The position numbers and the translations under genes were made by a program. Shown in pieces: positions 4,327 through 64,000 of a stretch of 64,000 nucleotides of DNA. Origin of the DNA: Ascidiella aspersa (Eukaryota); NCBI GenBank assembly GCA_963924565.1, contig OZ004614.1:26474001-26538000 (forward strand). The letters are read 5' to 3'. Each line of letters begins with the position of its first letter. The first letter of the stretch is position 1. The notes beneath the pieces are model-generated. The model saw only the letters and a program-made list of their open reading frames with translations. It was not told the origin of the DNA and made no database searches.

Positions 4327-7300
4327 GTGATGACGTGGTATACGATGGAGCAGAACTGGAAGTTTGGTCGCTCGAGAAAGTTGAAGATGCAGATCTTGAG
4401 GATGCGGAGTCTGGACTTGCGCTTGGATGGGACGGTGAAGTAGATGGGCTTCCCGTGCAAAGACATCTTACGCTTCCTGTACGGGACAGGGGGTGTGTCG
4501 GAGGTGTGGCCCCAGGGGGTGGGCACTCGGAGAAGCTGCAACAATAAGTCGTAAGCTGCAGACACAAGAAATTTCAGGGAAATATTTAATAAAGAGCGAA
4601 AGATTTTTAAGTCGTGAAATTATCTGTTGGTAACTTAATCACTCCTACCATCATTGAATTACAAACTGTTTTATAATAAAGCAAGGTTGTGCGAAAGTTT
4701 GCGAATTTATACAAATTGTTGTTAATAGTATCACAATATAAGTTGTTTTTTCAAGTAGTAATAAAACGTGTGTAGCATTTGTTTCTACTGTTTGTTAAAT
4801 GTTGAAATTAAACTTAAAAATTGCTTATTGTGTGAAATCCAACTTACGGTTGCGGCGAGAGAAGGTCTCCTACCGCTTCGGATATTGTGCTTTCCTCTCG
4901 ACGAATCATCGTTTGACACGTCATCAGTATGAGGATGGTCGGAAGTGAGATACTGGAAGTGAACAGGGCTCGAAATTACGGAGGCTTATTGCAGGAGTCG
5001 AAATTACAAGGCGGACATATTACAGGGATCGAAATTACAAGGCGGATCTGTTGCAGGGGTTAAAATTACGAGGCGGATTTATTGCAGGGTTTGAAATTAC
5101 AAGGCGGATTTATTGCAGGGCTCGAAATTACAAGGCGGACATATTACAGGGGTCGAAATTACAAGGCGGACATGTTACAGGGTTTGAAATTAAAAGGCGG
5201 ATTTATTGCAGGGCTCGAAATTACAAGGCGGACATATTACAGGGCTCGAAATTACAAGGCGGATTTATTGCAGGGCTCAAAATTACAAGGCGGACATGTT
5301 ACAGGGCTCGAAATTACAAGGCGGAGCTGTTGCAGGGGTCGAAATTACAAGGCGGATCTGTTGCAGGGGTCAAAATTACGAGGCGGATTTATTGCAGGGC
5401 TCGAAATTACAAAGCGGATTTATTGCAGGGTTCGAAATTACAAGGCGGATTTATTGTAGGGCTCGAAATTACAAGGCGGATTTATTGCAAGGCTCGAAAT
5501 TACGAGGCGGATTTATTGCAGGGTTTGAAATTACAAGGCGGATTTATTGCAGGGCTCGAAATTACAAGGCAGGCATGTTACAGGGGTCGAAATTACAAGG
5601 CGGATCTGTTACAGTGGCGAAATTACAAGGTGGGCATATTACAGGGTTCGAAATTACAAGGCGGATTTATTGCAGGGCTCAAAATTACAAGGCGGACATG
5701 TTACAGGGGTTGAAATAACAAGGCGGATCTGTTACAGGGGTCGAAATTTTATTGCAGGGGCTCGAAATTACGAGGCGGATTTATTGCAGGGTTCGAAATT
5801 ACAAGGCGGATTTATTGCAGGGCTCGAAATTACGAGGCGGATTTATTGCAGGGTTCGAAATTACAAGGCGGATCTGTTACAGGGGTCGAAATTACGAGGC
5901 GGATTTATTGCAGGGCTCGAAATTACAAGGCGGATCTGTTGCAAGGGTCGAAATTACAAGGCGGATTTATTGCAGGGCTCGAAATTACAAGGCGGATTTA
6001 TTGCAGGGCTCGAAATTACAAGGCGGATTTATTGTAGGGCTCGAAATTACAAGGCGGAAATATTACAAGGGTCGAAAATACAAGGCAGATCTGTTGCAGG
6101 GGTCGAAATTACAAGGTGGGCATATTACAAGGGTCGAAATTACAAGGCAGATCTGTTCCTGGGGTCGAAATTACAAGGCGGATGTATTGCAGTGCTCTAA
6201 ATTACAAGGTGGGCATATTACAGGGTTTGAAATTACAAGGCGGATCTGTTGCAGGGGTTGAAATTACTTTACATAACCCCTTTGACAAGTAAATGAAAAG
6301 TTGTTTCAAAAAATGTTTTGCAATTTACTAAACCTGACGTAATTGCAAGTTGTCGTTGCTGAAGTAAAGCAACATTTTGGGCTACATATGGTGGTTAATA
6401 AAAGCAAAACTTAACTTAAATTTCGCATATTTTCATTTAAACTATTTTGTTGAACTGACAAAACGATGCTATGTGATCATTTTAAAATATTGCATATCGG
6501 AACAAACAAAGAATCGTGCATTCCAGGTGAGAACAATTTAACATAAGAACCTTCTTGTTTGGGTTGAGATTAAGAATGTTGTGAAATAAATTTATATTTA
6601 AATTGCTGCTTACTTTAAATGTCAAGAAGCGCCTAAAATATTCATGCGGCGGCAAAATGGCCTTTAAACTTCTAAAATCGATGTTGGGCGAAAATGACAC
6701 GAGAGTGAATTGTCTCCAACGTCTGCCAGATGCTAAGCTTTTAAAGGCTAAGGTGCGAAGATGTACCCAAATGAAATGCAATCGCCCGAAACCCTTATTG
6801 TTAATATTTTGCGAACATGAAAAAAGGGGAATTTGAGTTCAACTTTATATGCGCTTTGTTTCATTGTTACACATTACACAAAAATACAAAAAAGAAAAAA
6901 GTAACTTGTCCTTTCCTATGTGAGCCGCTTTATTGAAAAGCTAGTGATTCGCACATTTTCACTTGCCACCGCTTATTTTCACACCGTTGTACAAACTGCG
7001 TTAAAAGCACTTAACGTTGAAAGGTTCTTGATGAGCCTGAAGCAATGCGAGGATAAGTGGCAGGATTGTAAATCACAAGAGTTTCTGGTTATAAAGACAA
7101 ACAACAACAACAGCCGACCACAGCCGGGGAATATGGCTAACTTGCAAATCTCCCGTAAGCCCACCTTAAGCCTACCAAACATAAATAACTATAGGTAACA
7201 AGTTAAAGACCTTAACTGTAAACTAAAGCTTTTAGATCTATAATATTGTTTGCTGCAAGGATTTGTAGCTAAGATGAAAAACTAGTATAACCCTCTAAAG

Positions 7301-42100: not shown

Positions 42101-45100
42101 GCGCTGGCGAACGCGGTGCTAGAACTGCTAGCCAAGAAGCTCAGGTCACAAGCCGATGAGGTGAGCTGCTTTGCACGAATTATTGACTCTCTAATTTAGT
42201 ATTTCGAACAATTAATTTAAATTGGTGGCTGAATACGACTCGTCTGACAATAGATTCTCTGGAACTCCTTTTTGGTGTAATTTGTTGCCTGGCCTGTAAT
42301 GGTTAGCCATAGTACTTAAAATAAGAAGTTGGATTAGCGCAAAAAAAAAAGAAAAGCTATAGAATCTCGTTAGCTTTTACAAGTCTTATGCTGCTTTGTT
42401 GCCGTTCCTTTTTATCTAAAGATATTTTCTAAAGGAGTTGAACCACTCTTATTTTTGCTTGTTATGTCCCTAATACCCCTACTTTACTTCTAATATCGCC
42501 TACTTTACATTAGGCATACAAAGACCCCCTAATGCCCCCATTTACCCATGGGCTTGCGACGAGTGAGACCTATAAAACCCCACGCTCAACCCTTACCTCA
42601 CACTTTACCCCAGGCTTGCGAGGAATGCAAGGCGATCAGCCGCAAGTTGTTTGAGAAGCCGAACACGATAGAGGAGCTGACTGAGATGCGCGATTGGATG
42701 AAGGGAGTCCCTGAGCAGCTGATGCAGCATCAGGAGATCATCGACCGAGCTATGGTTGATTACGAGCTCATCGAGGAGTTCTACTACAACCTCGCTCAAG
42801 ATGACTTCAACGCAAAGTAAGATTACTCCAAGCTTAGGAGAATAAGTCTTTTGCTGCTAGTAGCTACGAGAAAATATTGCAGCACCTTAAAGGCAAACTA
42901 TTGAAGCCGCCTCAACACTTTTAGAACAGCATATTGTATTTTGCCAAAACTTTTAGCCTTAAGATTGTCGCAAAAGATTTTTTAAGGACAGTCCTATATT
43001 TGCATAGGGAAACAATTTTCTTATTTGCGTAAACAATCTAAAATGTACTAAATAATTACGACTTCCCTTAATCGCATAATGCTTCAACTTATTCGTTAGA
43101 TGGTGAATTTATTTTGATTTCAATCAAAGCAACGACCTTAACTGCAACACATTAAGGTTAGGGTTATATTGTTCACCAAGGCTTGATGTGCATGATCTGT
43201 ACATTAAGTCGAGAGTTGTGTGTGTTCAGTCTTTCAAGCCGACTCAATGAATATCGAGCGTGGATGCATTGCGTCACAAACACATCGTTTATAACGTCAC
43301 AATGCAACGCGCTGTAACGCGCTATCGATCAATTATGCATGTAGCCGCGTCGGTTTGCGGAACACAGGCGTTCATTACGTAACAGTATACCTTCGCACTG
43401 TGATATGACAATCGGGTTGCGCGATTGTTTTTTCATATGCAGCATTATGACGTGACAATCAGTGGCTTGTTTGGGAATTCCCCAATATACCTGCTAAAGT
43501 GGATTTTTGCAGCAAAATGTTCGTTGCATTATGTGACTAAACTTTATGCTTATACACGATGTATAACCTAATCCAATGAGATAATAAGTCGGCAAACCAC
43601 TGAAATCGCAGCATTATTACGTTTTGTTTATAATGGTGTGACCAAATGAAAACATTACTTCACAGTTTGTGACAATAATGTCAATGAACCATCAACTTGA
43701 TGTTTTGTTTGATGCAATATCTTTGTATGCTGGGCAATTGTTGCGTAACTTGGATTGCTTTCAACAAAGTTAGGTGCAAATAAACGAGTCACATATTTTG
43801 GCAAAAGTCAACAAGCAACATCGCGCTGAACATCCAGAAGTTTTGCATAATTTTGTCGCAAATCCTTCAACTCAAGTTGACGAGGATGGCGACCAGTAGC
43901 CCGAGGTGGCTTGCAACAATGAAGATGACGTACAATCGGAAGAACATGACGTCAACAGCTCGCGCGACGCTCTTCCACTCTTCTTGCTCCAGATCCTGCC
44001 TCTCCTGCTCCTCCTCCTTCGCTATTCGCTCCAATTCACGTTTCCGTCGTTTACGCAACTTGCGCTTCTCCTTTCGTTCCGTTTCCGACTTTTAGAGTTC
44101 AACAAAATGTGCGTTAAAAATAAAACGGGAATAACTGAGAAACAGAGATTGGAAAACATTTATTACCTCGCCATTGCTGAACATTCTTTTGTAATGTTTT
44201 ATACATTTTTCAAAATATTAGTTTAGTAAAAACAGATATAACGCTAAAAAGAATAATGTGTTTTCACTACAATTATATAGACAAAACTCTACTTTGCTTA
44301 AAAGGCAATGTTTTTGTACAAGATTTCAACCTAAAAGAAAATTAAAAATCATGGTAATTGTTGACAGAGAATAACATTTGATTTTAAGAATAATTAAACT
44401 TGCTAAATGTAACATCCGTCAGTTTGTTTTCTGTTTGAACATTAAAACAAAGTTTTCAATTTTATTCTTTTAGAAAAGCAAATAAATTTAAAGTCAAACA
44501 AAACGAGAAACACCTCAATACAAACTTACCTTTGCCAGAAATCCTTTAACGTCAGCTAATGCCGAAAACATCTTCGACTTTGGAACGCTCCACTTGTTCT
44601 GCAGGAGATTCCCCGCAGTTGGGGTTTTGTCCGCGCGCAAATCTTCCGCGGACGACTTCCGACTTTTACCCCCTTCCTTGTTGTTCGACGGAGACTGGTT
44701 TAACGTCAATTCCATCGGACTAGATAATCTGCAACCAAAAAGGCTAAACTCAGAAAAAATACACATTTGCAGGAAAGTGTTTGTGCAGAAGAAATTCTTC
44801 GTGGCATTTTTCAACTAACATTTTATTAAGAACTTTATAAACGAGGAACTTACTGCTTTCCGTGTTTCTTCGGTGCTTCCGTAATGTACTCCACGTCCAC
44901 AACTTTCGGCTGGATTCCGTAATTTACCGTCTTTGGAACTTCCTTCTGTACTAATCCTTCCACTCTAGAATCCGACCAATTTGACTCGTTATCCGAATAA
45001 GTGACGTCATCTGCCTCACTAATGTCACCGTCATCTGGTTTGACGTCATCGTAGTGTGCGTCATTAACGATTGGTGCCATCCACCGTGAATCTCGCTCCC

Positions 45101-48100
45101 CTAAAGTCCAGTACTTGTCGAAAAACTGTAGGATTCTTCGATATTTGGTGGGAATTGAGGAATCGTTCCGCGAACTTTTCCGCGACCGCTGCGTTCCGTG
45201 TTTGTCCTCATCGCTCGAAATTTCTCCCTCCAAGCAACGAACTCTGCAACTGTAAGAACATTTGTTAACATTTCATAACGTTGTGTGGAATAATGACCTG
45301 GAAAAACCGTTAACAACACAAACTAGACGAAGATAGGTAATATGTTGAGTGTGTTCAGCAGATTGTTGTTCATTACTGGGGGTATGTTGTTTTGAAGCGA
45401 TCCAGTAGAAATGCCCCTGGTCGTAATAAATGCATTGAAATATCTTAAACGGACCCACTACCAGTTTAATTAAATGCTTGCTTCAACATCTCACCGTCCT
45501 TGTTTCTTCTTCCCGCCTTCCCTCCGTCTTTTACCGGCCACCTGGAAGTCGTTCACGATCGGCTTGAAATGCACGTGAAGCACCATCACGGTCATCATGA
45601 GGTTTACCCCGAGAAGTCCCATGCATATCACGAAGTAAACTCCTAAGTATGGACCGGTGGATGCCGGGAACATCTCACCAACAGCGAGAAGGAATACCTG
45701 CAATATTAAAAGGAATTTACTACGTGAGCGTATCGTGACTTACCATGAACGTGAGCATTATCGTGATGTATCTTGATTTACCATGAATGTGAGCATTATC
45801 GTGATTTACAGTATCGTGATTTACCATGAACGTGAGCATTATCGTGATTTACCATGAACGTGAGCATTATCGTGATGTATCTTGATTTACCATGAATGTG
45901 AGCATTATCGTGATTTACAGTATCGTGATTTACCATGAAGATGAGCAGTATCGTGATTTACCATGAAGATAAGCAGTATCGATATTTACCATGATCGTGA
46001 GGAGTATCGCGATTTACCATAAACTTGAGCAGTATCGTGATTTACCATGAACGTGAGTATCTTGATTTACCATGAACGTTAGCAGTATCGTGATACACCA
46101 TGAACGTGAGCAGTATCGTGATTTGCAGTATCGTGATTTACCATGAACGTGAGCAGTATAGTGATTTACCATGTACATGAGCAGTATCGTGATTTACCAT
46201 AAACGTGAGCAGTATCGTGATTTACCATAAACGTGAGCAGTATCGTGATTTACCATAAACGTGAGTAGTATCGTGATACACCATGAACGTGAGCAGTATC
46301 GTGATTTACCATGAAGATGAGCAGTATCGTGATTTACCATAAACGTGAGCAGTATAGTGATTTACCATAAACGTGAGCAGTATCGTGATTTACCATGAAC
46401 GTGAGTAGTATCGTGATACACCATGAACGTGAGCAGTATCGTGATTTACCATGAAGATGAGCAGTATCGTGATTTACCAAGAACGTAAAAGGTATCGTGA
46501 TTTACCATGAACGTGAGCAGTATCGTGATTTACCACGAACTTGAGCAGTATCGTGATTTACCATGAAGGTAAGCAGTATCGTGATTTACCATGAACGTAA
46601 AAGGTATCGTGATTTACCATGAACGTGAGCAGGATCGTGATTTACCATGAACTTGAGCAGTATCGTGATTTACCATGAGGATGAGCAGCATCGTGATTTA
46701 CCATGAACGTGAGCAGTATCGTGATTTACCATGAACGTGAGCAGTATCGTGATTTACCATGAAGGTGAGCAGTATCGTGATTTACCATGAACTTGAGCAG
46801 TATCGTGATTTACCATGAACGCAAAAGGTATCGTGATTTACCATGAACGTGAGCAGTATCGTGATTTACCATGAATGTGAGCAGTATCGTGATTTACCAT
46901 GAACGTGAGCAGTATCGTGATTTACCATGAAGGTGAGCAGTATCGTTATTTACCATGAACGTGAGCAGTATCGTGATTTACCATGAACGTGAGAAGTATC
47001 GTGATTTACCATGAACTTGAGCAGTATCGTGATTTACCATGAACGTGAGCAGTATCGTGATTTGCAGCCCGATCCTCTCCCCAGAGTCTGGAGGTAGGTA
47101 GAATCCCAGCAGAGCTACAGTTGTTAGGATGACGCTTGGGAAAAGCATGCTTTGCATATAGAGTGAAGAGTTTCTACGAAGCACAACTGTGAACGCAACC
47201 TAAAAACAGAGCAGATATTTTATGAAGGCCTGAGAAACGATTAATGTTTATTGGGTTCCCTAGAGTACTGGTGAGAAGAATCTGTTTATTTTAAGTAACC
47301 AACCCTCGAACCACGAATATTAACAATTTGCCAAGCACTCTTAAACCAAACCATTTCCGCTATATGATGGGTTGTACCAGCTTTGTTATTGCACTCACCT
47401 CTGCAAACATACTGTCGGTGATAGTGAAGTTGTTGTTAGCTTTTGTGTCGAGTTGCTGAGTGGCGGTGACCACCAGTGGACCGTGGTGTTCAAAGTGCAC
47501 TTCATCGTCCCCCGTCCCACTAACAACAACAAGGTAACATTAATTGTTGATATTGGTGACAGTGATAAGTGTTTATTCCAAAGAAGTTGTGCGCTTTGTT
47601 ATAAAGGTTGTGTCCTGGCATTATTTACATGTGCGTACAGCTCTATGCATTGTCTCCAATGTACTCATGCTTGTCGAACTGCCCACGATATTTAAACTCG
47701 CATTAACGTTTATTTAGCTCCATTATATGCACTAATACCACACGTCTGCGTCCCCAATGTTCTCGGTTCGCATAACGTGTCCTCACCTCCCTTCATCAGT
47801 GTCGTTGTGCGAGCTTGCGTTGTGTAAGCTTGCGTTGCTCGATGCTTTCGTGCTCAGGATCAACGACCCGTAGTCGCGCACCTGAAACACAAACCATCTA
47901 AACCTAGCAGTGAAATGTTAGACAGCTGGCTGTGAATCAAGCGGTCAAACAAGGGGTCTATTTAAAGAACTACGATAACTGACACAATAAGCAACAAATT
48001 ATATGCGGAATAAGCAGCTTTCTGCAAACTTTCCACAATGCATTTAGGAAGTCACTTCTAACTTTCTGTTATTGAAAAAAGTGATTTGTTCGACTCACGT

Positions 48101-51100
48101 TCTTCTTGACGCTGATCCCCGCCAACCTCCACTCGCCGGTGTTGATGAAGAATCGATCTGTGTCTTCCTCCAACTTCAAACTGCTTCGGTCGCTTGAAAG
48201 ATCGATCCGGGAGATCGGCTGCGACCATGACACGAAAGTCATGTGACACACCTGCCAACAATACACTCTGTTACGTCACTACATGGAAGTCATATGACAC
48301 ATCTGCCAACAATAGACTCTGTTACGTCACTACACGAAAGTCATGTGACACACCTGCCAACAATACACTCTGTTACGTCACTACATGGAAGTCATATGAC
48401 ACACCTGCCAACAATACACTCTGTTACGTCACTACACGAAAGTCATGTGACACACCTGCCAACAATACACTCTGTTACGTCACTACACGAAAGTCATGTG
48501 ACACACCTGCCAACAATACACTCTGTTACGTCACTACACGAAAGTCATGTAACACACCTGCCAACAACACACTCTGTTACGTCACTACATGGAAGTCATA
48601 TGACACACCTGCCAACAATACACTTTGTTACGTCACTACACGAAAGTCATGTGACACACCTGCCAACAATACACTCTGTTACGTCACTATTCCGCGTGTT
48701 TTAAAATATTGGTTAATTGAGTTGTATGGTTGAATTAAGAATAACAACTTGTTGATTAAAGGGATGAAGTTTGTACTCTTGTGTCAATATCGTGTTGCGA
48801 CTTTCCTAGTTTAAATTCTTGGCAGATGGAGTTTAGTTTTGTTTGAACTTTTATGTTTTCGGAAACTAAATGAGCTGTGACTTGTTAAATACTGGAAAGA
48901 AACGTCCAACGCTGATTGGTGTTCTACAGCTACTTCAGTATCGTACTCTAGGGTTACCAAGAGTTGTTCGTTGCACCTGAACATCGAAGGGGAAGAAAGC
49001 TGTGTCGATGCTGCAAGAAGTCTCGAAAGCGCTCGGCTCCTGGTACTTCACTGTTCCGTCATAAACGACCTGTACGTGGACGAGTCGTGGGGGGTAGCTC
49101 CTGCTGCCAACCTCCTCGTAAACAACAATGTCCGGGAACCAGATCAACTGGTGCGGGATCTCAACTGAACAAGTGGGACAGGGATGGTAGTAACACTATA
49201 CTGGAAGCCGTGCTATCATTAGTGTTCGACTTACTTCGCCCTGGAGCCCGTGTAGCTCAGCTGGTAGATCGACAGTCCCGGTATGGTCAAGGTTGTGAGT
49301 TCGAATCCCACCACAAGCTCGTGTATTTTGCTGGACTAATTTCGGGTAAACAGCCAAAGGGACTCGGTGTATTTCATACCCACGTTTGTGGTTATGATCG
49401 TTCCGTATGATTTAAAACTTTCAGATCGCATTTTATTCATGTCTAGCGATTTCAAAACAGCAGCTTTAGAAATCCAGTGGCATGAAGTAAGCAAAAATAT
49501 TAAACGAACATAAGCTATTTCAACCAATAGTTTCCCTTACTTTCTTTGATGCCACCAAATTCCTCAGGATTCCAAACAAACTGATAATCCTTCCAAACAA
49601 CTCGATACCAAACCAAACTCTTCAAAACCTGGTTCTTTTCGTCCAAATCTAACACCTGAAGAAGAAAATCAATCATTAATTCGATGTGATGTTAACATTC
49701 ATCGATTACATGAGCGTTTCTTAAACTGTCAGTTTTGTTCACCCCTGGCATCAAATGCTGCGTTTCAATTCACCCAAATAAATAAAACCGTCGCAACTGT
49801 CCATAAGCGTCATTGGCATGAGCACCAGTATGTGCGAGGTATTTGTGGGTTGCTTGTTGTACCACATTTCTTCTGGTATTAAACAATTTTGATGTTGGTT
49901 TGATTTGTGCAAGTTTCTGAGCACAGAAATATAAAAAAAAATCATTCACCTGTTACACAATTGATTGGTTAATCCTTGTAAAATTACCCACCCTTGGTCG
50001 AACCATTCTGTAGTTTAATAAACACTGGGTTGCATCTCACATGCGATGCATTGGCCTGGTTATCAAATGATGCATATTTACGGGCGTAATGTAAACGTTG
50101 AAGCAAATTTGAGGTTTACACAAAACACTGCAGCCACCTGTTGAGGTTAGAGATGTGGAAGCAGATAAGGAAGCTACTTACGGGATTTCTCTTAGCGGCC
50201 AATCACGCTTCTTTATTTTCTTTCACATAACGTGATCTCGCATGAATAATGGAAAGCTCAAAGATTGTCCGGAACCTTAGGAAGGTGGTTTATTTTGCGA
50301 CAAACACGAAATATATTACTCATATATTTAAACGTATAGTTCGACTAAACCCACTAAAGTAACACGATCCTTAGAAGCCAATAATACTTCCATCTGTCAG
50401 TTAATTTAAACCACTTAAAATGTTCTATATTTATGTGAAGCCTGCAAGTGATATCTTGCTGGAACCTTCAACACACCTTTGGTTTTAACCCGAACTTAAC
50501 ACTTGCGGTGAAATAACGCCTTAAACCACTTTGTTGTTTCAGTAACCTTAGTACAAAGTGTGACCTGATGTAAACCTTATCTCTAGCTGTTATTTTTACC
50601 TCGAATTAAACAAAGGCCGCACTTTGAACAACCCGAGCATTTTGTGATCTATCACTGTCGCTGTTGTGTTAGTTTGTGCTGATTTTATGTCAGCTCATTA
50701 AACTTTTACTAAATGCGCAACGCAGGAAGTAAGAGCGCAACCATTAAACGCAAATACTAAAAGCACCTGGGCTCTACATTTCGTTACAACCACTTAACAA
50801 CTTTACATTTTGCCATAATTTAAAAATTTCAACATAAACGATTTAACTTCGTTTAACTTCATTGAACACTTTTATAGAAAAAAAGTATATAAAAAATACA
50901 GTCCGTTTTAGGTGCTGCCACCTAGTGAAGAACTTACCTGTCTATAGGTGAATCCGACTTTAATGAGGATGTTTTCTTTATAGTCGTAGACAGGGGGCAT
51001 TGTTGCGTCATAGCCGTCCAACAATGCGCGCTTGAGTCGTTGCACGGGCGAGTCTGATTCACTCCCATTGTTGTATTGCTTGTTCTGACTGCGACTCAAA

Positions 51101-54100
51101 CTCGAAGTGTCTGGGAAGTAGAAGGTGATTATTGAGAGTCGGTTAAAGTGAGCCGAGCGTTCCGGGTAATAATGTGATTTCCCACCAAGCCATCAACTTG
51201 GATATATTTAGGCTAATACTTCATTTGCATATCTGTGCACGTCATCGAAACGTTTCCTGAGGTCTTTCAAGCGTCCCGTTATGACGTAACTTTGACGCCA
51301 TCTTAAAAAGTTCAAGCGTCCCGGTAAAAAAAAATAATTTCCTGCTTATTATAAGATTAAAGTAGAAGTAAAGATTGGGGTCGCAATTTCAATTCGGTTC
51401 ATGATTACTTTTGATTGGCGAGATCCAACTGAACATACAGAACCCCGGGAATGGCACTTCAACAAAAACACGTTTTCGTGATAATTGCATTAACGTCTAA
51501 CAGTGTTATTTGGAATGGTTATTGAAAACATATTGCGTGGGTTCATCCGCGTTCGTGAGTTCGAATCCCGCCAACACCACCAGTGCAAAGTATCTGTTGT
51601 GTTGTAGTGCATTGTGTTGCAGTGGAGTTTATGGCTTTCCAGTGAATGCGCCGACCTTATGCCAGTGAACCTGAAACTTCGAGGAATTTACGGCATATAC
51701 ACCTGAGGAAATCCCACCACAATAGTGTAAACGCAACAAGGTCGACCTTGCAATTCCATAAAAACGTAATTTCCTGCATTGGGTCGACGCTTGTATGTTT
51801 GCTGTAAATATTACAAACACTTTCCCACCCATGGGACCAATTAGAATCCCATAATCTATTTCTATTACGTTCTAAGTCAAGTTGCTCTTTCAACCTAATT
51901 TAGTGTTGCTACTTGGAAGTTGCGATAACGATGGATGGAAGCAACTTGACCGCAATGTTCCTTGGTATTAAGTGGCCGCTAAGTAAGAACTAAATTTAGT
52001 GGAAAGAATCCAAACAGGAAAAACGAAAATATTGAGTAAGACACGCCCAGCAGTTGGAAATTGTTGTATGATCTCACCTTTAACTGCGTTGAAGCTTGCG
52101 CCATTGACTTGCGTTGTTTTGACGAGGCTTCCTTTTGAGGCGGCGTTCCCGGCGAACGAATGCCCACATTGCCGCAGAATTAACAACACAACCACGATAA
52201 GTGGAGCTAGCCGCATCTTACTGGACGCAAAGTACTTGAATGTCATACAAGCGAGGTCTGAAGGTTATGCGAGGATAAACCACATTGGCTGGCTCAGTCA
52301 CATTTTTTTCTTGCCTTTGATATTCAAGAAAACCTCGGCCTTATCTGCCTCTAAACTTACATTACATCGAATATAATTTTGGAGGCTTCTCTTTTGAAAC
52401 AAACTAAATCTTTATTTGCTTTTCTGTCGGTAATTTTAAAATGTTTTTCCCATTTGATCTACATTGTGGGGAGAAAAAAAGAGTGTTTCCGTTAATTATT
52501 TTGTAAAACAGTCAAATAGTATTTGCGCGTTATTCTTGATTGTGAGTTAAAACGAGAAAACAGCTATCGAAGCGCAACGCCTGATTTTTCACTAAAGTAG
52601 TTGCTGACATCCGCTAAAAAAGAACACTTATTAAATAGTTAGGCTTTTATCTTGCTTATTTGGATATGATATGCACATACACGCCAGAAGCACTGTTGCT
52701 AAGTTGCAATTATAATGTATTCGTGTTCGTGACGCCCGTTTAGTGGAACGGAAGTGGTGGATCAATCGCTGCCTTCACATCTATTCGCCGTCTTACTTGG
52801 TGCTTGTCACATCGGGCAAATAGAGGAATGTCTCCAGCGTGGATTGCCAAATGTATGTTACACTACGGTTAACCCAAATACAGTAGGAATAATATGAAAG
52901 GCCATATAGATTCTATAGAACTATTGGTAACTTTTTTTACTACTGTGTTTGCTTTGATATTCTTACTACGTCCAACGAAAAATTCAGTCATTATGCTCCA
53001 AAGATAACTAATTACTTCATTAAACTAGGTGCAGTAAAACCAACTAAGCTTTCTTTGATAAATGTTTGTTAAAATACACTTGTGTAAGAATTGAATCCAC
53101 AAACTACAACCATCGTTCAACCATACCTAACGTTATGCCCCTATGTATACTTGGTATAGCACGTTACTGCTCAATAAGCTCGTTATACTGGGTTCTGCCA
53201 ACATGAACATGCACCAGCAGCTCCCAAGATACCTCTGCTACTTACAAACGCGCACGATTCAACCTTCAAGCAAATGTTACTTTCCCGCAGCCTGAGTGTA
53301 GCGATCCCCACTAAGTTACATCTGCTTCGAACAAAGTTAAAACGTGTTGCAAGTGGCACGAACTGTCCGCCCTGTTAAGGCGCACCGGGGTTCTCGGGAA
53401 AATCGTTACTTTCAAGTCACGTTTTACATAAATTCGCTGCAAATGTGCTAAGATGCCTTGCAACAACCGAACACCAAATCAACATCACTTTGCTTTGTTG
53501 GCGTTTCCCACAAAGCGTTACTTCCCCTCGTCTACCAGTCTGTCATCTCAACGCACCATTAATACTTCACGCGACCCACGAATATATGCGACCCGTGGAA
53601 ATATGCGAGCCGTGAAAATATGCGAGTCAAGTTTGTTTTTGCAGCGAGTGAAAGTTACAACTTTCTGTTTTATTTGTTCACTGACGGACTTTACTTTGCT
53701 GTGATATCTACGGTGAGCAAGCTGAGCATTCGTTGTTTGGTGGAAAACCTTAAAGATCTATTTGTATAAGGCCTTGACCTCATTAATATTGCAACACAAG
53801 GATCACACAACCGCGCATTTTCACGTTTATAGCGCACTTAAGCATCTGAGTGTGATGCTGAAACCTCATTTGTGCGTTGAACCTGACTCACACATAAAAT
53901 TAAAAATATAAAGCACGTAAATCAACATTGAAAGCAAAACAACTTGAGCTCCAATATTCCAAATATGGTAAGTTTTAAATCTCCCGTTTAACCACAGTTG
54001 TGATATAGTTTAACCACAGTTGTGATATAGTTCTAACAATAAGCTTAATGCCTTTGATGCTTATCCGCTTGTGCTCGCTGCACAACTTCCCACACAAGGA

Positions 54101-57100: not shown

Positions 57101-60100
57101 AACTTGGGTTCTCCGTTCAACCAAAGGTATAAACATACCGTGTATAACTTGGCTGATAAATCAATTGTTAGGATCAAATGCTTTTCTAATTTTTTTCATC
57201 GATTAAATATCTCAAGTTTTATGTTGTTTCCAGCTTACAGATTATAATCAATACAGGTCCATGATACGATGCTGCATGACCAGGTTTATTGTTGCCTCTA
57301 AAATTATTATAACTATTTTTAAAACAAGTGTATTTTTTCTTTTTTCGTTTGACCAAACGTGACAAAACATTTTTAATTGTTTTTTTGGTACATTAAAACT
57401 AAATTAAAGCTAACAGCAATAATTTAATTGATGCAATTCTTTATGTTACTCTAAAACATTTTCCGTCTTTTATGTAAGTGATAAATCTCTATTTAGCAAG
57501 TTGTAATCTCCCTGTTGATAGTTGTTACTGAGTGAGTGCTGTGTTGTGTAGGCGGCCTTGACCTTCAGCAAGTGCCTTGAGATGAACTTGGCTGATCACA
57601 TCGACAAGATCGCCAAAGTTGCCGAAGTTGCTGGGAAGGAATTCAGTATCGAGCAAGCTCTTGACAAGATGGAGAAGGAATGGGAACCGATCAATTTCGA
57701 GGTAAACCTTCAACATCTTCTACTGATAAATCCTATATTACCTTTGAGGTAAATCAAGTGTTTAAGATGCATTTTTGTATTTATTTGTTTATTTCAGCTT
57801 TTCCCCATAAAATAAGGTTTACTGGGATCCCCACAACTATCATTTCTAGAATTGGCACATTCCTTCAATAACCTTGTACCAATTTTCAAGGTGAAATCTT
57901 ACAAAGAAACCGGAACTTTCATCATAAAATCACCGGAAGAAGCGTCACAGTTGCTTGATGACCACATTGTGATGACACAAACGATGTCCTTCTCCCCTTA
58001 CAAGAAACCTTTCGAGGAGAGGATTGCTACTTGGGAGAGCAAGCTGAGCATGACGCAGGTAAAAAGCATGAGTCAGCAATCACGGTTTACCAATTTTTTT
58101 GACGTCAATCTTTTGATTTAACTTGGCGATGTAATAACCTCTTGTGACACTCACAAGTCGGCGTACGAAAACATCCTCTTGTTAGGCGTAAATAAATTTG
58201 TCACGTACGTGCGGTATAAATAGACTTATTTAAGTAGTATAATCTAATATAATTATATATATGTTATGATTCAAAACAATTAGTTATGTGCATAGCTTAC
58301 TATTTTCTGTTGAACAGGACGTGTTGTTGTTTATAGGACGTGTTGTTATTGTATAGGACGTGTTGGACGAGTGGTTGGTTTGCCAGCGATCGTGGCTCTA
58401 CCTCGAACCCATATTCAGCTCGGAAGACATCAACCGTCAACTCCCGGTTGAAGGGAAGCGATACCAGACCATGGAGAGGATGTGGAGGAAGCTCATGAAG
58501 AACGCAAACGACAACACACAGGTGATCACGCGCTCATCACGCAGGTGATCACGCGCTCATCACGCAGGTGATCACGCGCTCATCACACAGAGATCACGCG
58601 CTCATCACGCAGGTGATCATGCGCTTATCACGCAGGTGATCATGCGCTCATCACGCAGGTGATCACGCGCTCATCACGCAGGTGATCACGCGCTCATCAC
58701 GCAGGTGATCACGCGCTCATCACGCAGGTGATCACGCGCTCATCACGCAGGTGATCACGCGCTCATCACGCAGGTGATCACGCGCTCATCACGCAGGTGA
58801 TCATGCGCTTATCACGCAGGTGATCAAGCGCTTATCACGCAGGTGATCACGCGCTCATCACGCAGGTGATCACGCGCTCATCACACAGGTGATCACGCGC
58901 TCATCACGCAGGTGATCACGCGCTCATCATGCAGGTGATCACGCGCTCATCACGCAGGTGATCACGCTCTCATCACGCAGGTGATCACGCGCTCATCACG
59001 CAGGTGATCACGCGCTCATCACGCAGGTGATCACGCGCTTATCACGCAGGTGATCATGCGCTCATCACGCAGGTGATCACGCGCTCATCACGCAGGTGAT
59101 CGCGCGCTCATCACACAGGTGATCACGCGCTCATCACACAGGTGATCACGCGCTCATCACACAGGTGATCACGCGCTCATCACACAGGTGATCACGCGCT
59201 TATCACGCAGGTGATCACGCGTTAGATAAACCTTAGCAATTTGTGTAGCATGTCTTGAGCACTATTGTATTATTATTGTCTCCCATGTGATGTAAATTTT
59301 GCCTACTTTTGTAACTTTTACAAGTGTTATCAACAATATCTGCGTATTTCGCTCTGTTTATGTGAAGTTTCCCAGTTTTAAGTAATCTTTTCTAAGGTGA
59401 TTTCGCTGTGTTCGGACGCTCGGCTCCTTGAGAGCTTGAAGGAGTGCAACAAATTGTTGGAGCAAGTTCAGAAAGGACTGAGCGAGTATTTGGAGACGAA
59501 GCGAGCCTCATTCCCCAGGTGAGCCATCCGCTGGTTTGATCCGTCTTCCTCATTTTACTTTGTTCATCCTTAACTTCCACCTTCCAGGTTTTACTTTCTT
59601 TCCGATGATGAGCTTCTTGAGATTCTGTCGCAGACCAAAGACCCGACCGCCGTCCAACCTCATCTCAGGAAGTGCTTCGAGAATATATTCAAGGTAATTT
59701 AACACAAGTTTGACGCCATGTTAGAAGGGCTGTGAAACGTTTAAAACTAATATTCAGTTGGCTTTGTTGGCTTTAAATTGATGTTTTGAAGTTGTTTTAT
59801 AACGTCTTTTTTATTCAAAGTTGATCTCAATGTGAAATAGTACAAATAGTGGGTTGCCAATCACTTCTAAGACGAACTGTATTTGACTCCTCAACACTTC
59901 TGAGTTTAATTTACTCCACATCTATCAACTCGCACATTTTGTTGTCAGATCAAGTTTGAGTCTGACATGAAGATGACGGAGATGATCTCGGGTGAGGGCG
60001 AGCATGTTGCCTTCAGCGAGGATCTTTATCCCACAGGGAACGTGGAGGACTGGCTTGGTGAGGTGGAGAGAGTGATGATGCAGAGTGTGAGGATGCAATG

Positions 60101-63100: not shown

Positions 63101-63638
63101 TACCTCGCAATAAAAATACTGTTCAATAAAAGCACTTTTCAATTAAAATACTTTTATATCAAGGTTTCACTTTAAGATTATCGCTTGGCTCGAAATAAGT
63201 TTTGCCAATTATTTTTTAAAGGATAAATAGCTAACGTAAATTTATTTCAAATTATTCTATTTAATTATAAAAAGGTAGTTTATTGAAATATATATTGCCG
63301 TCATGCAGAGATCACAATAAAAAACAGTACTTTAGTGGGATTCGAACTTACGACCATACGAACACGCGACCACTGTCTCACTAACTGTGCTATCAAGTCA
63401 AAACTTGAAATTCCTGGGCACTTCAGCCACACATGCAAGTTCACAACTTGTTGTTCAGGTGGATGGTTTTGTGACCAAGTGTATCCAGTTGTACGAGACG
63501 ACTATTGTGAGGCACGGACTCATGTTGGTCGGACCAACTTGCTCGGGAAAGACAAAGTGCTACAACGTCCTCGCCAAAGGACTCACGCAACTCAAAGGAC
63601 AACCTTCCATCAGCGGCGGAAACTATGAGGCTGTTCAT
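33180..63638 (+). CDS. DNAH1: Dynein axonemal heavy chain 1 (inner-arm type), N-terminus through AAA1 into AAA2; gene continues beyond window end
   Basis: 36 coding exons: 33180-33317, 33910-34005, 34573-34645, 35039-35219, 35680-35969, 36361-36522, 36854-36989, 37387-37509, 37903-38060, 38405-38508, 38970-39080, 39584-39751, 39956-40127, 40599-40803, 41415-41513, 41935-42160, 42614-42816, 54755-54896, 55110-55265, 56565-56763, 56978-57126, 57552-57701, 57891-58058, 58357-58521, 59397-59518, 59588-59693, 59949-60162, 60516-60700, 60758-60840, 60979-61092, 61167-61404, 61641-61811, 62144-62233, 62495-62606, 62878-63092, 63459-63638. DNAH1-type N-terminal motifs [41 protein letters not shown]; linker [26 protein letters not shown]; AAA1 [34 protein letters not shown]; AAA2 GPTCSGKT. 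The first three exons rest on splice phase only. Confidence 0.95.
33333..33599. mobile_element. MITE in the first coding intron of DNAH1
   Basis: TIR core TGGAAAGTATGGCA / TGCCATACTTTCCA; repeated GGGTGCAC; 8-bp TSD TTTGGTGG at 33325-33332 and 33600-33607. Confidence 0.8.
43867..52246 (-). CDS. 5-HT3-receptor-like / nicotinic-type Cys-loop cation channel subunit (non-alpha), complete, 12 exons, ~731 aa, nested antisense in a DNAH1 intron
   Basis: Exons 52246-52078, 51110-50938, 49655-49541, 49164-48977, 48251-48099, 47881-47787, 47519-47399, 47199-47038, 45697-45495, 45249-44854, 44728-44530, 44088-43867 (2196 nt, phases consistent). Signal peptide; LDEKNQVL; WYRVVWKD; [10 protein letters not shown]; Cys loop [15 protein letters not shown]; TFVSW; GEW; M1-M2 [27 protein letters not shown]; M3 [14 protein letters not shown]; M4 [17 protein letters not shown]. 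No vicinal cysteines in loop C. Confidence 0.92.
45722..47063 (-). repeat. 28-bp minisatellite (~48 copies) made of an exon 3' end plus the 5' splice site
   Basis: - strand unit ATCACGATACTGCTCACGTTCATG|GTAA = codons ITILLTFM of the M2 helix plus the donor. The first copy lies in exon 47199-47038. Confidence 0.97.
48230..48689 (-). repeat. 51-bp minisatellite (9 copies) made of a 3' splice site plus the exon 5' end
   Basis: - strand unit AGTGACGTAACAGAGTGTATTGTTGGCAG|GTGTGTCACATGACTTTCGTGT. The last copy supplies the real acceptor and the start of exon 48251-48099 (VCHMTFV). Confidence 0.97.
49246..49345 (+). mobile_element. tRNA-derived SINE copy
   Basis: TAGCTCAGCTGGTAGATCGACAGTCCCGG...GTGAGTTCGAATCCC, colinear with the 22721 copy. 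Confidence 0.7.
56417..56527. repeat. 29-bp tandem repeat (~4 copies) just upstream of a DNAH1 acceptor
   Basis: Unit CTGACTTCATCCATGTGACGTCATCCATC, ending ~37 nt before the exon at 56565. Confidence 0.9.
58519..59221 (+). repeat. 23-bp minisatellite (~30 copies) starting exactly at a DNAH1 donor
   Basis: Unit CAG|GTGATCACGCGCTCATCACG. The first CAG is the last codon of exon 58357-58521. Confidence 0.97.
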
Positions 63639-64000
63639 GTGAGTTTGTAAAGTTGTTCATGTGAGTTGGTAAAGTTGTTCATGTGAGTTTGTAAAGTTGT
63701 TCATGTGAGTTTGTTAAGTTATTCATATGAGTTTGTAAAGTTGTTCATGTGAGTTTATGAAGTTGTTCATGTGAGTTTGTAAAGTTGTTCATGTGAGTTG
63801 GTAAAGTTGTTCATGTGAGTTGGTAAAGTTGTTTATGTGAGTTGGTAAAGTAGTTCATGTGAGTTTATCATTTGTTTATGTGAGTTTGTAAAGTTGTTCA
63901 TGTGAGTTGGTAAAGTTGTTCATGTGAGTTGGTAAAGTTGTTCATGTGAGTTTGTAAAGTTGTTTATGTGAGTTTGTAAAGTTGTTCATGTGAGTTGGTA
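63632..64000 (+). repeat. 22-bp minisatellite (at least 16 copies, truncated by window end) made of an exon end plus donor
   Basis: Unit TGTTCAT|GTGAGTTTGTAAAGT. The first copy overlaps the end of exon 63459-63638. Confidence 0.97.

Follow-up and report, generated by a model that had tools for sequence, protein, structure and literature searches.

What becomes of a Cys-loop receptor when the lid over its agonist site is lengthened by dozens of residues? The question is raised by a minus-strand gene of 12 exons in the 308.6 Mb genome of the ascidian Ascidiella aspersa (G000:C8), which lies in a 64,000 nt stretch of contig OZ004614.1 (positions 26,474,001 to 26,538,000 of the forward strand). 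We refer to this whole stretch as the window and give all positions in its coordinates. An earlier note, made from the sequence alone, had reported here a two-exon insertion of about 60 residues in ligand-binding loop C of a 5-HT3-like receptor, and saw in it a radical remodelling of the agonist lid that suggested altered ligand specificity or modulation by Zn2+ or protons. The insertion is real: exons 47881-47787 and 47519-47399 join in frame and place 79 residues between the GEW motif and the F-A-E strand. To judge from the comparisons below, the gene is a cation-type Cys-loop subunit of an ascidian clade sister to vertebrate 5-HT3 (serotonin type 3) receptors, and the long loop C is a trait of that clade, a family that these searches turned up in sea squirts alone, rather than an oddity of one gene.

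Loop C in the ascidian clade

The 11 exons from 51110 to 43867 maintain an open frame of 674 residues, to which an inferred exon 1 adds, and all their introns are of the GT-AG type. The product has the defining features of the Cys-loop receptors (pentameric ligand-gated ion channels), including a C-x13-C loop with FPFD, the GEW motif, the pre-M1 Arg and four transmembrane helices, with D-S-G-E-R ahead of M2. Domains PF02931 and PF02932 were both above the Pfam cut-off in the Styela orthologue (P0007), and there was no Pfam match in either insert exon.

In the window protein, 89 residues separate GEW from the pre-M1 Arg, as against 28-31 in all of the 103 vertebrate 5-HT3A proteins from the homologue search, and the extra residues of loop C number about 58. 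Measured between the two loop C aromatics, the tip is longest in the window protein, at 65 residues; 13 other members have 37-62 and one Styela gene has 13, compared with 6 in alpha9 and 7 in 5-HT3A (between F226 and Y234). A long tip (37-65 residues) is present in 14 of the 15 ascidian members, including two from the Ascidiella genome. The member with a 13-residue tip (P0022, Styela clava XP_039253303) branches near the base of the clade and is a natural control for the long-loop members. This count leaves out P0031 (a Ciona model without the exons from beta7 to loop C), the fragment P0004, and P0010, a fragment of the gene of P0019 with a short, differently read loop and no beta10 motif, whose short-loop record we took as a mis-model; it also leaves out P0012/P0013 (a Styela isoform, 13 residues shorter and still long), P0152, P0150, P0157, P0154 and other near-copies within clusters. 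One of the ten matches in the representative-protein search with exon 5, P0002, was a repeat protein and no relative.

Proteins from Ciona, Phallusia, Clavelina and Styela outranked all vertebrate 5-HT3A proteins in homologue searches with the Styela orthologue and with an ascidian alignment. In a tree built without the insert, from which 10 rows had been dropped (4 long branches and 6 redundant), the 15 ascidian rows formed a single clade (Shimodaira-Hasegawa-like approximate likelihood ratio test, SH-aLRT, 99), sister to the HTR3A/HTR3B-like rows (joint support 99); a second tree of 40 rows was similar, with the clade sister to the HTR3 rows (SH-aLRT 96). The clade stood apart from the non-HTR3 rows in the trees, which were alpha9-like, cnidarian, nematode and rotifer sequences, and within it the window protein formed an orthogroup with a single gene from each of Ciona, Clavelina and Styela (SH-aLRT 98). 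The best match of the Styela orthologue among PDB sequences was 5-HT3A (225 bits), followed by alpha4 (173) and alpha7 (155), and its best fold match was also 5-HT3A; vertebrate 5-HT3A, with structures such as 6Y1Z, 4PIR and 8AXD, headed the sequence and fold matches of the relatives. Superposition of a paralogue model on the extracellular domain of 5-HT3A gave a Z of 23.7 and a root-mean-square deviation (rmsd) of 2.1 A over 211 residues, and on alpha9 a Z of 21.7 and an rmsd of 2.6 A over 210 residues. Tree, sequence match and fold match therefore agree with the placement of the subunit closest to 5-HT3A in the earlier note; the phylogeny that it had proposed was obtained for HTR3 and alpha9-like rows, no ZAC sequence having come up among the part of the candidates scored in the homologue searches.

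The Ascidiella genome contains three genes of the clade. The two paralogues map to G000:C3:22928247-22933379 (-) and G000:C3:26369035-26373412 (+) (loci L004-L009), and in each a 153-nt beta9 exon is followed by an additional one, 134 or 164 nt in length, which gives a long acidic loop C. Ciona, Styela and Clavelina have 3-4 genes per species, and no member from Oikopleura or amphioxus was seen among the part of the candidates that was scored. The beta10 intron falls after F-A-E in the window gene (phase 0, 47399/47199) and 7 nt earlier, within a Trp codon (phase 2), in both paralogues (L004, L008), which have a further intron after Y-M-Q that is absent from the window gene.

The insert sits between two aromatics. 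Fourteen residues after the GEW Trp, in the register of the alpha9 TyrC1 (the Tyr before G-C-C), 15 of 16 ascidian rows have Tyr or Phe, and all 16 have an aromatic (Phe, Tyr or Trp) at TyrC2. Because both aromatics flank it, the insert replaces the tip of the hairpin, the site of the vicinal cysteines in alpha subunits. The aromatic box itself is undisturbed, with TyrA, TrpB, TyrC1, a Phe at C2 and the loop D Trp. The idea of a radically remodelled lid needs correcting as regards its binding residues, since the aromatics are kept on either side of the insert.

The tip of the 14 long members is made up of three parts: a brief opening stretch with hydrophobics at +3/+4, then 8-36 residues of variable tract, and finally a 23-residue end of fixed length. 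A hydrophobic strand 23-19 residues before TyrC2 was present in 13 of the 14 long tips (mean 5.5 and maximum 12 in 2000 shuffles), and two hydrophobics at +3 to +5 in 11 of the 14 (shuffled mean 2.4, maximum 7). The variable tract concentrates charge: Asp, Glu and His make up 38% of the variable tracts versus 18% of the fixed parts across the 14 members, and in the window protein all five His of the insert and seven Asp/Glu lie within it. The four N-glycosylation sequons of the earlier note (NAS, NAS, NDT, NFT) are all present, three of them in the variable tract. Its His/acidic cluster exists as well, although it is not conserved, with five insert His here and 0, 3 and 0 in the Ciona (XP_078481133.1, LOC104266775), Clavelina (XP_076826203.1) and Styela (XP_039254706.2) orthologues, and a 15-bp repeat supplies two of the His and three of the sequons, which weakens the idea of Zn2+ or proton modulation for this gene. 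Loop C is long in the same orthologues too (48, 40 and 53 residues separate the aromatics); they differ in having shorter variable tracts (19, 11 and 24 residues versus 36 here) and fewer His and sequons (3, 0 and 2 sequons); only the last sequon is at a common offset, in Ciona. Identity among the orthologues is 9-33% in the insert, 53-59% in the rest of the extracellular domain and 84-94% in M1-M3, the value of 94% being that for Ciona. In the AlphaFold model of the Ciona paralogue P0019, a helix (266-272) is followed by a disordered His/Asp segment (274-282, predicted local distance difference test score, pLDDT, <50) and by a strand and helix at about 289-310 (pLDDT 83-90 over 291-310); in that of the Styela orthologue P0007, pLDDT is <50 at 280-304 and then about 60-70 (59-69 over 301-330), with a strand at 305-310.

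Gene model and splicing of the insert

The exons and the elements of the insert are as follows.

52078..52216, minus strand: exon 1 (inferred), start codon and signal-peptide-like stretch; ATG at 52216, a phase-1 GT donor after 52078 that matches exon 2, and a predicted N-terminus like that of the Ciona orthologue P0158
50938..51110, minus strand: exon 2, N-terminal helix and beta1
49541..49655, minus strand: exon 3, loop D (W-Y-R)
48977..49164, minus strand: exon 4, loop A (Y-E-E), loop E (tyrosines lost) and first half of the Cys loop
48099..48251, minus strand: exon 5, second Cys, loop B Trp, loop F, GEW and beta9; 153 nt, phase 0, of equal size in both paralogues
47903..47903, minus strand: cryptic acceptor joining exon 5 to an immediate stop; X3 depth 2, splice score 1.2, 22 nt upstream of the modelled acceptor
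47787..47881, minus strand: exon 6, first insert exon (95 nt), with the TyrC1-equivalent Tyr (47872-47870), the hydrophobic start of the insert and the first part of the variable tract; X3 depth 8.6
47477..47851, minus strand: variable acidic/His/sequon tract, 36 residues across exons 6-7 (the longest; 8-33 residues in the 13 other long-loop members)
47803..47837, no strand: 15-bp repeat of 2.3 copies in exon 6, encoding the NAS-LH / NAS-SH / NDT run
47399..47519, minus strand: exon 7, second insert exon (121 nt), ending in F-A-E; TyrC2-equivalent Phe at 47407-47405
47408..47476, minus strand: fixed-length 23-residue module, a hydrophobic strand and then the return to beta10; contains the NFT sequon, whose offset Ciona shares
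47038..47199, minus strand: exon 8, beta10, pre-M1 Arg, M1, and M2 to 12' (-1' Glu); its joint with exon 7 was seen in X3
45495..45697, minus strand: exon 9, end of M2 and M3
44530..45249, minus strand: exons 10 (45249-44854) and 11 (44728-44530), intracellular loop, resembling Ciona P0136/P0158
43867..44088, minus strand: exon 12, MA helix (Q-D-E at the 5-HT3A R-R-R positions), M4 and stop

RNA was compared over 47064-48229, the region of exons 5-8, with four of the five listed runs. Run X3 was treated as RNA because it contains GT-AG joints; among the indexed runs none on record as RNA was listed for the stretch, which is not counted as evidence. The depth of X3 is <10, its contigs omit rare paths and its tissue of origin is unspecified. 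Exons 6 and 7 have AG/GT ends and their in-frame join yields exactly the peptide of the earlier note. The spliced joints 47787/47519 and 47399/47199 are present in X3 contigs at a depth of 8.6 and introns 6 and 7 have no coverage; both insert exons therefore occur in transcripts and are spliced to each other as in the gene model. The use of a shorter exon restoring a normal loop C, which would have refuted the note's claim, was not seen in X3. The cDNA confirmation that the note had called for is thus supplied by RNA contigs for exons 6 and 7 and for the joints 47787/47519 and 47399/47199; the in-frame joint leading into the insert from exon 5 was not seen. Two other routes to a shorter loop lead nowhere: skipping of exon 6 alone results in a stop, and skipping of exons 6 and 7 in the loss of the beta10 F-A-E. 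A short-loop splice at the only in-frame internal AG, at 47455, which would give a near-normal loop, has a score of -9.4, below all 26 real acceptors, and was unseen in X3.

Intron 5 (47882-48098) behaves otherwise. X3 contains only two paths across it, retention (depth 5.2) and a joint from 48099 to 47903 (depth 2), and each of them leads to a stop within ten codons. Raw RNA run X5, of which 6% was sampled, gave eight unspliced reads and no spliced joint, X2 gave loose ends and X4 three short contigs, neither of them informative. The in-frame acceptor at 47881 is nevertheless supported, because its splice score of 9.2 makes it the strongest AG nearby, above 21 of the 26 real acceptors of the gene and its paralogues, and because the Ciona and Clavelina orthologue proteins continue with K-x-(V/M)-(R/K)-DYG directly after beta9, as this acceptor predicts. 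Intron 5 is probably real, but spliced inefficiently or conditionally, and it could be a detained intron; splicing of introns 6 and 7 is complete in the same contigs. The cryptic AG is preceded, at 15 nt, by a branch-point-like CTAAC, and there are two extra AGs within 22 nt of the true acceptor. The eight X5 reads, near-identical and located at 47415-47960, agree in having a minus-strand first mate, and three reads <90% alike, from elsewhere, have the opposite orientation; the eight may be antisense RNA or DNA carry-over, numbers being too small to judge.

Binding site, pore and a proposed role of the insert

Residues are numbered here as in the literature on mouse 5-HT3A. The window protein retains the positions W90, R92, E129, T179, W183, D204 and E236, and all four orthologues retain TyrA, the loop A Glu, the pre-loop-B Thr, TrpB and the loop D Trp/Arg. 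The statement that 5-HT3-type binding residues are retained is therefore correct for the loop D W-Y-R, the loop A Glu, the loop B Trp and the Glu after loop C, but it passed over the loop E losses Y141H, Y143Q and Y153Q, and T181V; N128Y and Y234F are also changed. Viewed as a nicotinic acetylcholine receptor (nAChR), the protein has the complete aromatic box (Y, W, Y, F, W for TyrA, TrpB, TyrC1, TyrC2 and TrpD), and resembles the alpha9/alpha10 type in TyrA, TrpB, the loop D Trp and a Tyr in the exact TyrC1 register. Unlike that type, it falls outside the nAChR rows in both trees and has the insert in place of the Cys-Cys pair; a search for vicinal cysteines found no Cys from GEW to pre-M1 in any of 15 ascidian rows. 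From this sequence pattern, the ligand is likely to be a small cationic amine, and a biogenic amine (5-HT or a relative) seems somewhat more likely than acetylcholine, because the protein lacks the vicinal cysteines and retains the loop A Glu and the pre-loop-B Thr. The available part of one study names these two residues as conferring 5-HT selectivity and describes the roles of the aromatic box (PMC4006026).

The pore is of cation type by the usual motif: each of the 16 ascidian rows reads D-S-G-E-R, with Glu at -1' and without Pro at -2'. As the earlier note had seen, M2 of the window protein has the -1' Glu; it also has a 20' Glu and G-L-Q-I-T at 2'-6'. The -1' Glu and the lack of vicinal cysteines are shared with vertebrate 5-HT3A, from which the protein differs, besides the tip length and the residue changes given above, in this 2'-6' stretch and in the MA helix, where Q-D-E occupies the positions of R432, R436 and R440, near to the Q-D-A found at the conductance-setting positions of 5-HT3B (PMC6719409, available part). 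This Q-D-E leads us to predict a higher conductance than that of 5-HT3A. The MA helix (43867-44088) also has a long basic and then acidic run, which, with Q-D-E, is conserved in the Ciona and Clavelina orthologues.

Somewhat better than an even chance is our estimate for the following explanation, which relies on sequence and on models of relatives: the gene would encode an intact cation-type subunit of the ascidian 5-HT3 sister group, with a conventional aromatic amine pocket and a partly folded cap that tunes access or kinetics, not ligand identity. The insert of about 58 residues, placed at the loop C tip between two retained aromatics, would still allow a small amine to bind in the conventional pocket, and the folded frame and disordered middle predicted suggest a cap whose middle is floppy, acidic and probably glycosylated. 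Such a cap would modify ligand access, affinity or kinetics instead of defining the ligand, and the channel would carry a cation current with high single-channel conductance. Because it is flanked on either side by retained key residues of the pocket, the insert likely tunes binding and does not replace the site. Chimeric channels still gate after deletion of loop C, the effect being local to binding, according to the available part of PMC12749857; a large cap at the tip could therefore be tolerable and act on access, affinity or kinetics.

Several observations weigh against this explanation. The in-frame joint 48099 to 47881 is absent from X3, the one RNA assembly covering it, and retention (5.2) plus the cryptic joint (2) nearly add up to the whole depth of exon 5 (7.4); in the X3 sample, the in-frame joint is a minority at best. 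The loop E residues Y143 and Y153 (Y144 and Y154 in human numbering) are non-Tyr in all 14 ascidian rows, Gln and Gln here, and the available text of PMC9977066 lists Y154 as required for binding; loop E tyrosines needed for serotonin being lost, the amine bound may be another one. One Clavelina model (P0152) has no aromatic at TyrC1. The features of the fixed module were picked after viewing an alignment whose rows are kin, and the fold predictions cover the relatives P0019 and P0007, with alignments of 24-26 rows, not the window protein. Finally, the trees are quick SH-aLRT trees without ZAC, HTR3C-E and most nAChR subfamilies.

Other explanations read the same insert differently. One, which we consider unlikely, sees a repurposed sensory family like the cephalopod chemotactile receptors, in which the folded part of the insert would be a new pocket wall for an environmental or non-canonical ligand. 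The lineage-restricted expansion (three genes here and 3-4 per species in Ciona, Styela and Clavelina) agrees with this, as do loops E and D, which differ strongly among paralogues around a nearly invariant M2, the loop D Trp being replaced by Arg in 7 of 14 ascidian rows. Both C3 paralogues have this Arg (R-x-R) together with a conserved MDP...V.E..P.R.T..HW motif in loop C, and, speculatively, this additional Arg in loop D of a cation channel might suit a ligand that is acidic or zwitterionic. Ascidian larval taurine sensing also awaits its receptor, which its authors expect to be a homologue of neurotransmitter receptors (PMC12922724, available part). However, the link to taurine is a guess, and the orthogroup of the window gene keeps the whole classical aromatic box. 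ZAC, a cation-type Cys-loop channel on the 5-HT3 side of the family, is the model for an explanation that we regard as decidedly unlikely for the window gene, in which the His/acid tract would sense Zn2+/Cu2+ or protons and gate or modulate the channel. The five His and seven acids of the tract, its enrichment in Asp, Glu and His across the clade, and the 10-12 acids and three His in each variable tract of parB, Phallusia P0024 and Ciona P0019 are in line with it, and an acidic loop C residue shifts the Zn2+ EC50 (half-maximal effective concentration) of ZAC threefold (PMC11536092, available part). Yet ZAC has a very short loop C, shorter than in other Cys-loop receptors, and its intracellular ring carries Gly at a position that is Glu in cation channels, the opposite of the long loop and Glu found here (PMC11536092); moreover, the Ciona and Styela orthologues have no insert His, two of the five His here derive from the 15-bp repeat, and the tract is predicted to be disordered in relatives. 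Metal or proton sensing seems more plausible for the parB/Phallusia/Ciona subgroup than for the window gene.

The remaining two explanations deny the insert a role at the binding site. A structural, non-principal subunit might have an idle loop C with no constraint on its length, comparable to the allosteric loops C of the muscle subunits beta, delta and epsilon; this is improbable, given that TyrA, TrpB, TyrC1, TyrC2 and the fixed-length module, which an idle loop would not need, are kept clade-wide. The gene might also be mostly untranslated in this species, with intron 5 retained or mis-spliced and the long-loop protein rare, tightly regulated or decaying. The finding in X3 of only retention and a stop-making joint at intron 5, beside fully spliced introns 6 and 7, and the unspliced X5 reads point in this direction, but the shallow X3 contigs omit rare paths, the in-frame acceptor far outscores the cryptic one (9.2 vs 1.2), and decay is unlikely with an intact frame and 94% identity to Ciona in M1-M3; we hold it to be highly improbable. 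Regulated retention of intron 5 is compatible with the tuning cap that we favour, and only true decay competes with it. A tentative and, as a whole, doubtful extension is that the clade is an undescribed 5-HT3 sister family in which loop C has acquired a small folded sub-domain with an exchangeable acidic/glycan tract and the ligand has diversified (an amine-type pocket here, a loop D Arg in paralogues); its members would be excitatory chemosensory or modulator-gated channels, possibly including the missing settlement-cue receptor, and the output of this gene would be set by intron 5 retention.

The clade in the literature, and minisatellites of the locus

Proteins of the clade carry automatic database names such as "alpha-9-like", "beta-3-like" and "5-HT3A-like", and the nAChR-type names among them are not supported by our trees. 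We found no description of the clade or of its loop C in the searched literature, which comprised few subscription journals and no supplements. A 2023 survey of 5-HT3 receptors reports, in its available part, no tunicate 5-HT3 in its first search and 17 residues for the longest loop C insert in its set (PMC9977066), and Ciona sequences that fell with HTR3 were left out of a phylogeny of nAChRs (PMC6354393, available part); the closest invertebrate-chordate relatives of 5-HT3 receptors therefore seem to have been missed between two literatures. The clade has no mention in the available parts of PMC8634148, PMC10136630 and PMC4795631, and PMC3182448 had no matches to the search terms; the supplementary sequence tables of PMC6354393, PMC9977066 and PMC4795631 could include members. 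At the level of the clade, this loop C is a structural variant within known Cys-loop receptors, of a kind that would surprise channel specialists. A 2005 survey of ascidian ion channels by Okamura et al. may list these genes.

No moving part of Cys-loop receptors has been studied more than loop C, and a natural series of tips of 13-65 residues in one clade, with the aromatics kept, is a ready test of its role in binding versus gating. The clade also bears on the origin of 5-HT3 receptors, as its ligands would show what the 5-HT3 ancestor bound, and, once de-orphaned, it might supply receptor candidates for ascidian sensory biology.

Two minisatellites of the gene repeat its own splice sites. 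The one at 48230-48689 consists of nine copies of 51 bp that repeat the exon 5 acceptor together with 22 nt from the start of that exon, stops following in every copy; that at 45729-47063 consists of about 40 copies of 28 bp that repeat the end of exon 8 with its donor. Both form arrays of decoy splice sites. Other long minisatellites in the window lie at 4964-6267 (31 bp), 58515-59221 (23 bp) and 63632-64000 (22 bp). The units of the last each contain GTGAGT/GTAAAG donor-like words, so that junction-spanning repeats may be common in this genome.

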